Assembly: GCA_963833225.1 (NCBI GenBank)
Contig: CAWHXD010000006.1
Coordinates: forward strand, 310,846 to 374,845
Length of the DNA: 64,000 nucleotides
Source: an uncultured Chloroflexia bacterium
Lineage (GTDB): Bacteria > Chloroflexota > Limnocylindria > Limnocylindrales > CSP1-4
Direction: 5' to 3'
The position numbers and the translations under genes are program-made. Shown here in pieces: positions 3,785-19,892 of this stretch (position 1 is the first letter of the stretch; each line of letters begins with the position of its first letter). The notes under the pieces were generated by a model, which was not told where the DNA came from, searched no databases, and was given only the letters and a program-made list of their open reading frames with translations.

Positions 3785-4611
3785 ATGCGCGAGCCCGTCG
3801 ATCCCCAGGACGCCCGGGACCCGGCCGCCGCCGCGACCGCGGCCGCACGGTCGTCGGCCGGCGTGCCCCCCTGGGTGCCGGCGCCTGGGTCATCCTGCCG
3901 ACGTACGACGAGCGCGAGAACCTTGAGGGGATCTCGGCCGCCATCCTCGAAGCGCTTCCGGGAGCCACCCTGCTGGTCGTCGACGACGCGTCGCCCGACG
4001 GCACCGGCGAGATCGCCGAAGCGCTCGCGGCCGCCGACCCGCGGGTCATGGTCCATCACCGGCCCGGCAAGCAGGGCCTGGGCCGGGCGTACCTCGACGG
4101 CTTCGGCGTCGCGCTTGGCGCCGGCGCGGCCGCCGTGATCCAGATGGATGCCGACTGGTCGCACGACCCGGCGGCCCTGCCCGCACTCCTTGAGCCCGTC
4201 ACGGCGGGCCGTGCGGATCTCGTCATCGGCTCTCGCTACGTTGCCGGCGGTGGGGTCGAGGACTGGGGCATCATGCGCCGGTTCATCTCACGCGGCGGCT
4301 CGACGTTCGCCCGGATCGTGCTCGGGCTCGGCCCGCGCGACCTGACCGGCGGGTTCAAGGCCTGGCGGGCGGCGACGCTGGCCACGGTCCCGTTCGACGG
4401 AGTGCGGGCGGGCGGGTACGTGTTCCAGATCGAGATGACCTACCGGGCGTCGCGTCTGGGGGCGCGTGTGGCGGAGGTGCCGATCACGTTCCGGGATCGC
4501 CGGCTCGGCCAGTCCAAGATGAGCCGGCGGATCATTGTCGAGGCGCTGTTCGTGGTGCTCCGCCTGCGCCTGGACGAGCTGCGCGGCCGCGGACCCGCCC
4601 GGCCGGCATGA
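3785..4611 (+). CDS. Polyprenol monophosphomannose synthase (GT2, DPM1-like); possible frameshift near 3870
   Basis: The frame of ORF 4048-4611 extends upstream as WVILPTYDERENL..VVDDASPDGTG; also QMDADWSH, GSRY, DLTGGFKAW, GYVFQIE. Confidence 0.88.
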
Positions 4612-16445: not shown

Positions 16446-16988
16446 CTATGACGCGCGGTACTCCGCGGAGGCCATGTCCGAGTCCAGGAAGACCGAGGAA
16501 ATCGACTCCCCCAGACTCAGGTCGTTGATGACGACCCCCCGCAGCGTCAAGGTCCCGGCGGCGCTGGACACCATGACGACGTCAAAGTGGGCGCCCGTGG
16601 CGCTGGCCTCGATCACGCGCGGGTCGAGCGCGTCGGTGGCGAGGGTGACCTCGATGATGGAGGCCGACGCCCGGCGCTCCAGGGAATACGAGTTGATCTC
16701 CATCAGGGACGCGATCTCCGGGATGGCCATCGTCGGTCCGGCCGTGGCCTTTGGAGCGGCAGCGGGTTTGGCCGCGGGCGAAGCCGGCGTGCCACCCTCG
16801 CGCTGGACGGGCGTCCGTAGCGCAACCGGTCCCCGCCCGGCCAGGAGATCCACGACCGAACGATTGCCCGATGCCACCTGAAGACCGAGCAGTACGTCAG
16901 CGGTGGTCTGCGGGCCGCCGTCCCGGGGCGCGATCCTTCGCTCCTGCTCGCTCGTGTCTTCCCGCGGGCGGGGCCGATGGGACTTCAT
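16446..16988 (-). CDS. Hypothetical protein: LQxxxGNxxV-type leader + Hcp/tail-tube-like C-terminal domain
   Basis: ATG 16988 (C-terminal part of ORF 16446-17741): LLGLQVASGNRSVVDLL..VQRE, Pro/Ala linker, then EINSYSL..EVTLATDALDPRVIEASATGAHFDVV..LTLRGVVINDLS..EY. Confidence 0.55.
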   Translation of the reverse strand: MKSHRPRPREDTSEQERRIAPRDGGPQTTADVLLGLQVASGNRSVVDLLAGRGPVALRTPVQREGGTPASPAAKPAAAPKATAGPTMAIPEIASLMEINSYSLERRASASIIEVTLATDALDPRVIEASATGAHFDVVMVSSAAGTLTLRGVVINDLSLGESISSVFLDSDMASAEYRAS

Positions 16989-17038
16989 TGCTGGCCGCGG
17001 TGCATGCCCCGGACCGTACGGCCGCGCGGACGCCGGAG

Positions 17039-18154
17039 TCAAGGGACCCGGGCTGGCCGATGTTGCGACGGCTCGTGCTGGATTGGCTCCCCGTACCAGC
17101 GCCGGCCCAGCCAGAACGCGACGTTGACGAGGGCGATCATCACCGGGACCTCGACCAGCGGTCCGATGACCGCGGCGAAGGCCGCCCCGCTGCCGATGCC
17201 GAACGTCGCCACGGCGACCGCGATCGCCAGCTCGAAGTTGTTGGACGCCGCCGTGAACGAGAGCGCCGTGGTCTGCCCGTAGCTGGCCCCCGCCCGGACG
17301 CTCATGGCGAACGTGACCAGGAACATGACCACGAAGTAGATGAGCAGCGGGATCGCGATCCGGACCACGTCCAGGGGCAGCGCGATGATGTTCTCGCCCT
17401 TGATCGAGAACATCACGACGATCGTGAACAGCAGGGCGATCAGCGTCACCGGGCTGATGCGCGGGATGAAGGTGCCCTCGTACCAGGCCCGGCCGTTGCG
17501 GCGAATCAGCAGGATCCGGGTCAGGAACCCGGCGATGAACGGGATGCCGAGGTAGATGAACACGCTCTGCGCGATCTGGCCGATCGTGATGTCGACGGCC
17601 AGTCCCGGCAGCCCGATCCAGGTCGGGAGCACGGTGATGAACACGAACGCGAACACGGAGTAGAACAGGACCTGGAAGATCGAGTTGAACGCGACCAGCG
17701 CGGCCGCGTACTCCGGATCGCCGCGCGCGAGGTCGTTCCACACGATGACCATCGCGATGCAGCGCGCAAGGCCGATCAGGATCAGCCCGGCCATGTACTC
17801 GGGCTGGTCACGCAGGAAGACCACCGCCAGCCCGAACATCAGCAGCGGGCCGATGACCCAGTTCTGGACCAGCGACAGGGCGAGGATCCGCGTGTCCCGG
17901 AACACGCGCCCGATCTCCTCGTACCGCACCTTGGCCAGCGGTGGGTACATCATCAGGATCAGGCCCAGCGCGATCGGGATCGAGGTCGTCCCGACGCTGA
18001 GCCGGTCCAGCAGCGGGACCACGCCGGGGACCAGCGCGCCGAGCGCGATGCCGCCGGCCATCGCCGAGAAGATCCAGACCGTGAGGTAGCGATCCAGCAG
18101 CTTGAGGCGGCGCGCGGGTGCCACCGGCGCCGTGGGGGCCGTGACGGGGGTCAT
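17039..18154 (-). CDS. acr3: ACR3 family arsenite efflux transporter
   Basis: [38 protein letters not shown] (conserved Cys), [18 protein letters not shown]. Confidence 0.97.
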
Positions 18155-18993
18155 CGTGCCGGCCGCTCGGCAACGACGGACGGCCGTGCCCGGCCCGCCG
18201 CGCGGAGCGCCACCTCGATGAACGGCCGCAGGCGGCCGGCAACCTCCTGCTCCGTTCTTCGGAATGCGGCCAGCTTCTGCTCGTCCGTGCCCTCGACCTC
18301 GGACGGATCGTCAAGGCCCCAGTGCAGCGTGTTGGTGGACCCGGGGAACACCGGGCACGTCTCGCGGGCCCGGTCGCACACCGTGATCACGTAGTCGAAC
18401 CGCTGGTCAAGGAACTCGGTGATCACCTTGCTCCGGGCACCGGACCAGTCGATGCCGGCCTCGCCCAGGACGCGGATGGCGAACGGGTTCACCCGGGTCG
18501 CCTCCGTGCCCGCCGAGTGGACCTCGAAGTCCGCGCCGCCGTAGCGCGCGAGCAGCGCCTCGGCGATCTGGCTGCGCGCCGAGTTGTGCGTGCACACGAA
18601 GAGCACACGGATCGGATCGGCCACCGGGTTCATCCTCCTTGCGCGGCCACCGGCCGCGATCGTCTGCTCCAGGTCGACGAGCTCCCCCTCGAGCCGGTCG
18701 AGGTCATCACGCTGGCGCGCGATGGCGGCCCGTTGCTCGGCCAGCATCGGCCCCAGCCCGAGGTCCACGGCGCCCAGCTCCAAACACAGGCTTGCGAGCC
18801 GCCCGGCTTCTCGCGGGGCCACGCCCAGTCGCCGCAGGGCGACGACGAGCCGGAGCCGAGCCACATCGACATGCGCATAGCTGCGGTAGCCATTATCCCG
18901 CCGGTCCGGGACCGGCAGCACGCCTGCCCGCTCGTACCAGCGGACAGCTGACGGGGCAATCCCGACGCGGTGGGCGAGCTCGGCAATGCGCAT
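18151..18993 (-). CDS. MerR-family HTH domain fused in frame to a thioredoxin-type arsenate reductase ArsC (LMW-PTP fold)
   Basis: N-terminal [23 protein letters not shown] plus coiled coil; C-terminal [36 protein letters not shown]. No stop between the domains. Confidence 0.9.
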
Positions 18994-18999
18994 GTCCGT

Positions 19000-19030
19000 A
19001 GCCTAGACCTTCAAGTGACTCGAAGGTCAA
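19000..19030 (-). promoter_or_regulatory. MerR-type promoter/operator: -35 TTGACC, 19-bp spacer, -10 TAGGCT, with dyad GACCTTCGAGT-C-ACTTGAAGGTC
   Basis: Minus strand 19030->19000 reads TTGACC TTCGAGTCACTTGAAGGTC TAGGCT. Inverted repeat 19006-19028 matches 10 of 11. ATG follows the -10 after 6 nt. Confidence 0.88.
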
Positions 19031-19049
19031 GCCACTTGCCGAGGCAGCC

Positions 19050-19892
19050 TCAGCGACCGAAGCGGCGTGCCCGTTGCTGGTAGGTGCGGATCGCCCGCAG
19101 GAAGTCGATCTCCCGGAACGCCGGCCAGTAGACGTCGCAGAAGTGGTACTCGCTGTAGACACTCTGCCAGGGCAGGAATCCCGACATTCGGATCTCGCCG
19201 GAGGTCCGGATGATCAGGTCCGGATCCGATGAGCCGTGGGTGTAGAGGTGGGCGGCGAGCGCCTCGGCGGTGATGCTGTCGGCAAGCCCGGCCGGTGGCG
19301 TGCCCGCCGCGACGGCGTCCCGGACCGTGGCCCGGAAGGCCTCGAGGAGCTCGTCCCGGCCGCTGTAGGCGATCGCCACCGTCACCGAGATCGCGCCGTC
19401 GGTGTGGGACAGCGTCCCCGCCCGTTCGACGGCTTCGGCGAGGCCGGCCGGGAGGACGTCGCGCCGACCGATCACGTGCAGCTCCACCGGGGCGCTCGTC
19501 CGCCGCCGACCCGACGCAAGCGCGCTGATCGCCTCGCTGGCGACATCGGTGATCGTCGTCACCTCGTCGGCCGGCCGCTCGAGATTCTCCATCGACAGCG
19601 CCCACAGCGTGACCTCGTGGATCCCGAGTTCAACGCACCAGTCGATGAGCTCGAGGGCCTTCTCGGCGCCTCGCCGATGGCCCTCCCCGAGGTCGGGGTA
19701 CCCCTCCGCCGTCGCCCATCTGCGGTTGCCATCCATGATCAGCGCGATATGGCCGGGCCGTGGCCTCGCGCACACGGCCGCTCGCAGGCGGGCAACGTAG
19801 AACGCGTAGGCCGGGGCGAGGATGACGCCGACCGCGCGCCGGTAGGCGCGGCCGAAGCGTCCGTTGGCGAGCGTCGTGAGCGGATCGGCCAT
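19050..19892 (-). CDS. uppS: cis-prenyltransferase (UppS family, Rv1086-like)
   Basis: HIALIMDGNRRWA, LSMENLER, DPDLIIRTSGEIRMSGFLPWQ, RRFGR C-terminus. Confidence 0.92.
   Translation of the reverse strand: MADPLTTLANGRFGRAYRRAVGVILAPAYAFYVARLRAAVCARPRPGHIALIMDGNRRWATAEGYPDLGEGHRRGAEKALELIDWCVELGIHEVTLWALSMENLERPADEVTTITDVASEAISALASGRRRTSAPVELHVIGRRDVLPAGLAEAVERAGTLSHTDGAISVTVAIAYSGRDELLEAFRATVRDAVAAGTPPAGLADSITAEALAAHLYTHGSSDPDLIIRTSGEIRMSGFLPWQSVYSEYHFCDVYWPAFREIDFLRAIRTYQQRARRFGR

Follow-up and report, generated by a model that had tools for sequence, protein, structure and literature searches.

The merR-arsC gene and its operon

The window analysed here is a stretch of 64,000 nucleotides (nt) from the genome of an uncultured Chloroflexia bacterium (assembly GCA_963833225.1, contig CAWHXD010000006.1, positions 310,846 to 374,845 of the forward strand), and the gene under study, merR-arsC, is found on its reverse strand at 18151..18993, as are the other features located below unless a strand is given. 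The gene encodes a long product of 280 amino acids (aa) in a single open frame without interruption, and in this protein Pfam recognises two domains, MerR_1 over residues 1-66 (E 4e-14) and, further on, LMWPc over residues 130-256 (E 2e-19). The initial annotation of this DNA, made from the letters alone, had already read the gene as a one-frame fusion of a MerR regulator with an arsenate reductase (ArsC), and both halves are indeed there.

The second gene, acr3 (17039..18154), encodes an arsenite efflux permease that scores well above the equivalog cut-off of TIGR00832 (453.8 vs 282.8 bits). The TGA of the fusion gene (18153-18151) overlaps the acr3 ATG (18154-18152) in the ATGA that the initial annotation had pointed out, and translational coupling of the two genes is predicted. 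Upstream of the fusion lies a uppS-type prenyl transferase gene, the end of which is at 19050, and beyond acr3 are Ham1 and RNase PH genes on the forward strand. As these converge on the operon, acr3 is inferred to be its last gene (a terminator scan of 16700-19200 found none), and with uppS on one side and the converging pair on the other the unit consists of two genes amid housekeeping genes. An open reading frame of 182 aa just past acr3 on the same strand (16446-16994) was not counted in the operon and has no Pfam family.

The genome assembly (3.89 Mb, 20 contigs, 86% complete) contains one acr3 and one LMWPc gene, which are this pair. It has 16 matches to HTH_5, the ArsR-type domain, all of them outside the window (C6:310846-374845), so the claim that the window contains no arsR stands; Pfam finds no HTH_5 domain in the fusion protein either.

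The joined frame is genuine and no artefact: each of the 120 best homologues listed (75-95% identity, 263-295 aa) has both a MerR and an LMWPc domain, and among 63 related loci that we collected from species-representative genomes, 38 have a full-length fusion, the frame of which is intact in 35. The junction itself (18620-18660), for which a read-level check had been suggested, is spanned by contigs of four public metagenome runs, at low depth, with no gaps and no indel listed. Among the public runs listed as matching 17900-19150 none is of RNA, and the DNA runs share at most 0.29 of the words, their contigs being used for this check only. A stop or frameshift between the domains is thus seen neither in the listed homologues nor in the contigs, and the frame is broken in three loci only: L028, L041 and L059 (the fusion gene starting at 4001), in which it stays open for 109, 61 and 124 codons from the start, respectively. 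These may be pseudogenes or may reflect long-read indel errors. Homologues of the fusion appear under public names that cover one half each, either "arsenate reductase" or "MerR family regulator".

A MerR-type DNA-binding half without a metal site

The N-terminal part is a winged helix-turn-helix of the MerR type (18796..18993, residues 1-66), with scores of 52.8 bits for the Pfam family MerR_1 (cut-off 21.6) and 46.3 bits for MerR (cut-off 28.2). Residues 1-110 align without gaps onto residues 1-110 of CueR (1q05, 1.6e-8) and residues 2-111 align with the Bacillus MerR structure 4ua1 (9e-12). In the AlphaFold2 model of the fusion (mean pLDDT 84.5) a long helix extends over residues 81-121 (18631..18753) and the first strand of the ArsC domain over residues 128-134, so that the helix, continued by the linker, ends 6 residues short of this strand. 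The helix aligns with the coiled-coil dimerisation helices of CueR, MerR and CadR, and the protein is predicted to dimerise as these do. No solved chain spans both halves: in the fold search the TM score on the query did not exceed 0.45.

What the MerR part lacks is the site of the metal-sensing MerR proteins, namely a loop bearing Cys ligands where the long helix ends. Its sole Cys is C70 (codon 18784..18786), kept in 146 of 150 distinct homologues, and no other occurs from residue 71 up to residue 133, just as the initial annotation had described a MerR part with one Cys and without the metal loop of CueR and MerR. The scores of the fusion against the NCBIfam equivalog models for metal-sensing MerR proteins are likewise low (34-51 bits vs cut-offs of 143-261). 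In the ungapped alignment with CueR, C70 maps ahead of the long helix and off the metal-ligand positions of CueR. A further residue, D77 (18765-18763), is kept in 149 of the 150 homologues and aligns with the CueR position that is presumably the selector of ion charge in metal-sensing MerR proteins.

A residue-complete ArsC domain of the thioredoxin-coupled type

The ArsC domain (18199..18612, residues 128-265) has the low-molecular-weight (LMW) phosphatase fold and is, by its sequence, of the thioredoxin-coupled type, the mechanism of which is a cascade of Cys-Cys disulfides with rearrangement of a loop. The three redox cysteines that had been claimed for it are present in the motifs that had been quoted, CTHNSARS with C134 (codon 18594-18592) and CDRARETC with C206 (18378-18376) and C213 (18357-18355). 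In the alignment with Bacillus subtilis ArsC (1jl3), C134 coincides with the Cys of the P-loop, C206 and C213 with the downstream pair (Cys 82 and 89 of the B. subtilis enzyme) and D229 with the catalytic Asp in the DDP motif, so that these residues and the CX5R P-loop are all accounted for, and C134, R140, C206, C213 and D229 are each found in 150 of 150 distinct homologues. The third P-loop position, H136 (18586-18588), is His in 143 of these 150.

The closest solved relatives of this half are arsenate reductases, the Deinococcus indicus ArsC2 (8p5n, E 3.5e-36) and B. subtilis ArsC (1jl3, E 2.7e-30), and protein phosphatases match it at E 5e-5 or weaker. A fold search with the model also returned arsenate reductases, with TM scores of 0.85-0.94 on the target; within the domain the model is least confident in the stretch past C206. 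For this enzyme class, redox and arsenite-bound structures have been solved, to judge from the titles of 1lk0, 1jfv, 1lju and 2ipa.

The promoter of the fusion gene

The 56 nt that separate uppS from the fusion gene contain a promoter of the MerR class (19000..19030), with a -35 element TTGACC at 19030-19025, a 19-nt spacer at 19024-19006 and a -10 element TAGGCT at 19005-19000. It is overlaid by a dyad operator (19003..19031) of two 14-nt arms (19003-19016 and 19018-19031) that are 86% complementary; the dyad covers the -35 element and fills the spacer, and its half-sites, which are conserved across loci, may resemble those of the E. coli copA operator. Promoters controlled by MerR proteins typically combine a spacer of 19-20 nt with a dyad that lies between their -35 and -10 elements, as this one does. 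An ordinary sigma-70 scan of 16700-19200 with 16-18-nt spacers found no promoter, which fits the 19-nt spacer.

The ATG of the fusion gene stands six bases past the -10 element. The TAG within this element is an in-frame stop ahead of the ATG, so that no earlier start is possible, and since the helix-turn-helix recognised by Pfam begins at residue 1, the transcript is predicted to start at or beside the ATG and the mRNA to be leaderless or nearly so.

This arrangement recurs in the relatives. When a mask of 20 promoter positions was scored over the window and the 38 loci with a full-length fusion (39 loci), at least 18 of the 20 positions were matched in 39 of 39, each time 6-7 nt ahead of an ATG or GTG. 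The promoter stands directly at the aligned start in 28 loci and at a start 9-11 codons further up in five. Two loci, L017 (3905-4000) and L049 (3901-4000), have the promoter and an ATG about 60 nt above the aligned start and out of frame with it, which could be a short leaderless upstream frame, a leader or an assembly error. In four others (L021:2390-3109, L027:3285-4004, L033:3264-4004 and L035:3204-4004) the promoter fronts a gene for a Metallophos_2 phosphoesterase, which overlaps the fusion start by 4 nt and makes the fusion the second gene of the operon.

Over 654,736 nt, 67 windows matched the mask at 16 or more of the 20 positions, and the hits listed were the site itself, its reading on the reverse strand, or a single second site in one locus. 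In the 3.89-Mb genome the promoter pattern occurs once at up to 3 mismatches (0 times for the reversed control), and its own operon is therefore the only recognisable target of the regulator. The second site just mentioned belongs to L057 (1779-1809, 18 of 20 positions), 2222 nt upstream of the fusion gene, and is followed (L057:1825-3966) by a gene combining Phosphatase-like_N and LMWPc domains and then by a pyridine-nucleotide disulphide oxidoreductase gene; the regulator of this locus may control two units.

A conserved internal start

Within the linker region the gene carries what looks like a second translation start (18622..18640): a Shine-Dalgarno (SD) sequence, AAGGAGG (18640-18634), followed after 9 nt by an in-frame GTG, the codon of V124 (18624-18622). 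An SD core 4-13 nt ahead of an in-frame ATG or GTG in the linker is found in 35 of 36 distinct intact genes, the exception being L023, and the conserved start lies 6-14 codons ahead of the catalytic Cys; ahead of the other in-frame ATG and GTG codons of these genes such a core is present in 42 of 318 cases (13%). The amino acids of the linker vary while the SD is kept, and the rare AGR codons make up 46 of the 116 Arg codons in the linker vs 49 of 1168 elsewhere. Both observations mark the internal SD and its start codon as selected at the nucleotide level, and a free ArsC of about 157 aa is predicted as a second product of the same mRNA.

Distribution of the fusion and its neighbours

Across the phylum, 401 genomes were sampled (with the unpublished G272, G173 and G227 as non-holders) and 150 matches listed. 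Among the matches listed, the full-length fusion occurs in 13 of the 24 genomes that belong to the window's family, a count that includes G000, and in a single genome from a second family of that class; all other matches listed are ArsC alone. The public labels of the holders are Chloroflexota, Chloroflexia or Limnocylindrales metagenome-assembled genomes, with one labelled Actinomycetes. A library of 1.84 billion proteins yielded full-length alignments with a few clusters at 50% identity only (P0121, P0122, P0164, P0196 and P0148), and among these five Pfam finds both domains in P0121 and P0122 only. Fusions of ArsR to LMWPc are far commoner in the library, with 12 of the 30 representatives scanned. 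Apart from these, the representatives (P0139, P0185, P0152, P0233, P0133 and P0251) include tandem LMWPc-LMWPc proteins and a fusion of channel and enzyme, MIP-LMWPc.

Directly downstream of the fusion, an acr3 or SBF-family gene is present in 13 of the 39 loci: six of these genes are at least 83% identical to the acr3 of the window, four only 38%, and three are fragmented (in L028, L041 and L049, where acr3 is in pieces). In three more loci (L042, L043 and L045) acr3 lies divergently upstream, and in L057 a MIP channel gene follows the fusion. ArsP is encoded in six loci and ArsM-like methyltransferases in four. The constant unit of the compared loci is the fusion gene with its own promoter, of which the ArsR-less acr3 operon is the version of the window and its nearest relatives.

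Proposed mechanism

The reading that we favour, and consider rather probable, is that of a self-regulated arsenic operon of two genes, governed by a MerR-family regulator in which a residue-complete thioredoxin-type ArsC has replaced the effector site. The fusion is probably a kind of arsenic sensor that has not been studied before and that stands in for the usual ArsR repressor. By analogy with other members of the family we infer that the ArsC domain is the sensor, because it stands where these proteins have their effector site and no candidate other than C70 is present in the MerR part: ArsC begins where CueR and MerR have their metal loop (the CueR alignment covers residues 1-110 and the model has a strand from residue 128).

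A dimer bound to the dyad operator would keep the promoter off, and arsenic would alter the ArsC domain, a change that would be transmitted through the helix. As in other MerR proteins, the regulator would then untwist the over-long spacer so that RNA polymerase can initiate. The signal could be the turnover of arsenate, with a disulfide cascade from C134 to C206 to C213, rearrangement of the loop and resetting by thioredoxin, or else it could be arsenite held by thiols, perhaps including C70. The output would be a little more regulator (its leaderless start being presumably poorly translated), much free reductase from the SD-led start, and the Acr3 pump, and the switch would reset once arsenate has been reduced and exported.

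The first of these two options can be taken further, to a sensor coupled to catalysis, in which the DNA-bound dimer itself reduces As(V), the oxidised C206-C213 state, with its rearranged loop, activates transcription and thioredoxin restores the resting state; we put this forward tentatively, as a possibility less likely than its contrary. If it holds, transcription would report the flux of arsenate against the reducing capacity of the cell; the protein would be a factor that responds directly to As(V), a MerR activator with the active site of an enzyme as its effector site; and regulator, free enzyme and pump would all be made from one leaderless mRNA.

Several observations weigh against the ArsC domain as sensor of an arsenic operon. 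By analogy, the known ArsR-ArsC fusions indicate that fusion to ArsC need not make ArsC the sensor, and PMC6514093 labels the ArsR part of these proteins as a repressor that responds to As(III). The predicted short form, the free ArsC, suggests that the main job of the domain is catalysis. As the assembly is 86% complete, a second reductase or pump may have remained unassembled, and one weak match (33 bits) to PF03960, the other ArsC family, is found on another contig. The top NCBIfam model for the fusion is arsC_pI258_fam (TIGR02691), at 123.8 bits, which is below the cut-off of 174.3; the domain is on this account to be classed, by its sequence, as a relative of the pI258 and B. subtilis enzymes and not as an equivalog. 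The third position of its P-loop, His in the fusion, is Gly in the aligned solved reductases. Lastly, the neighbourhoods are less uniform than that of the window: the initial annotation had spoken of an acr3 operon without ArsR, which is accurate for the window but does not extend to the family, where acr3 follows the fusion in the 13 loci already described, where ArsR is encoded within 2.6 kb in seven loci (L017, L024, L025, L028, L033, L041 and L049) and where the fusion lacks an arsenic gene as neighbour in about half of the 39 loci.

Alternative explanations

The alternative that survives best, although we judge it unlikely, is that the two domains were joined for co-expression only, as is supposed of ArsR-ArsC proteins, and that the ArsC domain sends no signal. 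The MerR part would then be a constitutive repressor or activator, or would sense by C70 alone, for instance through As(III) or a thiol-reactive stress that bridges the two C70 of the dimer. The frequency of ArsR-LMWPc fusions (the 12 of 30 representatives above), the ArsR-ArsC2 and ACR3-ArsC fusions that appear in PMC6514093, the conservation of C70 (146 of 150) and the internal start, by which the enzyme seems to be wanted free as well, are all in its favour. However, both domains are kept in 120 of 120 listed close homologues and the frame is open in 35 of 38 loci, and in the model the helix ends within 6 residues of ArsC, which would suit mechanical coupling. If the MerR part had no effector site, one Cys would be its only input, and this Cys lies ahead of the long helix in the CueR alignment, away from the metal-ligand positions.

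A second alternative, which we hold to be quite improbable, is a signal other than arsenic. The domain with the LMW-phosphatase fold would then respond to general disulfide or oxidative stress, or to some phosphorylated ligand, and the linkage to acr3 in the window would have been acquired secondarily. The loci without an arsenic neighbour, about half of the total, agree with this, their genes being for PadR, hemerythrin, DinB and DUF2461, or EAL/GAF/PAS, or DUF202 and DUF389 proteins, and a cascade of three Cys is inherently redox-active. On the other hand the domain is nearest to proven arsenate reductases (8p5n at 3.5e-36, 1jl3 at 2.7e-30) and only distantly matched by phosphatases (E 5e-5 or weaker), and the informative neighbours are all related to arsenic, namely acr3, MIP, ArsP, ArsM-like and ArsR.

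That an adjacent merR and arsC were joined by an assembly or sequencing error, through a lost stop or a frameshift, is so improbable that we reject it, for although the internal SD and start do resemble the start of a separate arsC gene and 3 of 38 related loci have broken frames, the fused frame is open in 120 of 120 best homologues and in 35 of 38 loci and contigs from four independent runs bridge the junction with no indel.

Comparison with known systems

Among the MerR proteins, TipA and AlbA, the two known genes with a pair of in-frame products, are the nearest precedent, and in both the short product is the sensor domain; according to PMC6078987, the TipAL/TipAS arrangement of Streptomyces lividans has been described and that of AlbAL/AlbAS proposed, and both are autoregulated, the long product being the helix-turn-helix with the C-terminal domain and the short one, from an internal start, the C-terminal domain. 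The fusion shares with them its own MerR promoter and a conserved internal start (35 of 36 genes), both of its products being predicted from sequence. It differs in that its C-terminal domain is an LMW-phosphatase-fold enzyme without homology to the drug-binding TipAS type, and in place of an antibiotic to be sequestered it would bind an oxyanion and turn it over.

CueR, MerR, ZntR and CadR give the best matches of the N-terminus in the Protein Data Bank and have the 19-nt spacer and dyad in common with it. Unlike them, the fusion has neither the metal loop nor a Cys at the end of the long helix, the ArsC domain being there instead, and it is the first gene of the operon that it would control, on an mRNA predicted to be leaderless.

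An arsenic regulator N-terminal to an LMW-type ArsC is likewise found in ArsRC, that is, arsRC of Leptospirillum ferriphilum and the actinobacterial ArsR-ArsC2 (PMC4443643 and PMC6514093). In these proteins the DNA-binding part is an ArsR/SmtB repressor, whereas that of the fusion is of the MerR type without an effector site of its own. The name "arsRC" in PMC1851979 and PMC6421061 was rejected as a precedent, since it is there the name of an operon.

With the thioredoxin-coupled reductases (8p5n, 1jl3 and pI258 of S. aureus) the ArsC domain shares the fold, and the P-loop Cys and Arg, the two further Cys and the Asp align; these enzymes are free proteins of 130-145 aa, to which the fusion adds a DNA-binding extension of 127 residues and the His at the third P-loop position. 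The enzyme Cg_ArsC1' of Corynebacterium glutamicum is, according to PMC6514093, a constitutive reductase of this type that is there before induction and makes As(V) into the inducing signal. Pilot enzyme and ArsR sensor are separate in that system, while in the fusion the enzyme and the DNA-binding part form one chain.

The same source, in the part available, surveys 357 actinobacterial ArsC proteins and reports fusions to ACR3 and ArsR only, and the accessible parts of PMC4531530, PMC6421061 and PMC11672702 do not describe a MerR-ArsC fusion. Nor was any description of one found in the rest of the literature searched, which excluded subscription journals and supplementary files, in keeping with the remark of the initial annotation that this logic was not recognised as described. 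What would be new here is a MerR-family regulator with an enzyme as its effector domain.

Significance for arsenic regulation

In the reviews and papers searched, ars operons are under ArsR/SmtB repressors that sense As(III), and arsenate is therefore sensed only once it has been reduced. If the ArsC domain of the fusion senses, this would be a second regulatory logic for arsenic, in which no separate pilot enzyme is needed, and the MerR effector domains would come to include an enzyme. Promoter, putative sensor and enzyme form a compact gene of about 900 bp, and the finding is relevant to the interpretation of arsenic genes in metagenomes, too. As the fusion occurs commonly within a single family of Chloroflexota from soils and wetlands, it may also offer a testable part for arsenate-specific biosensors.

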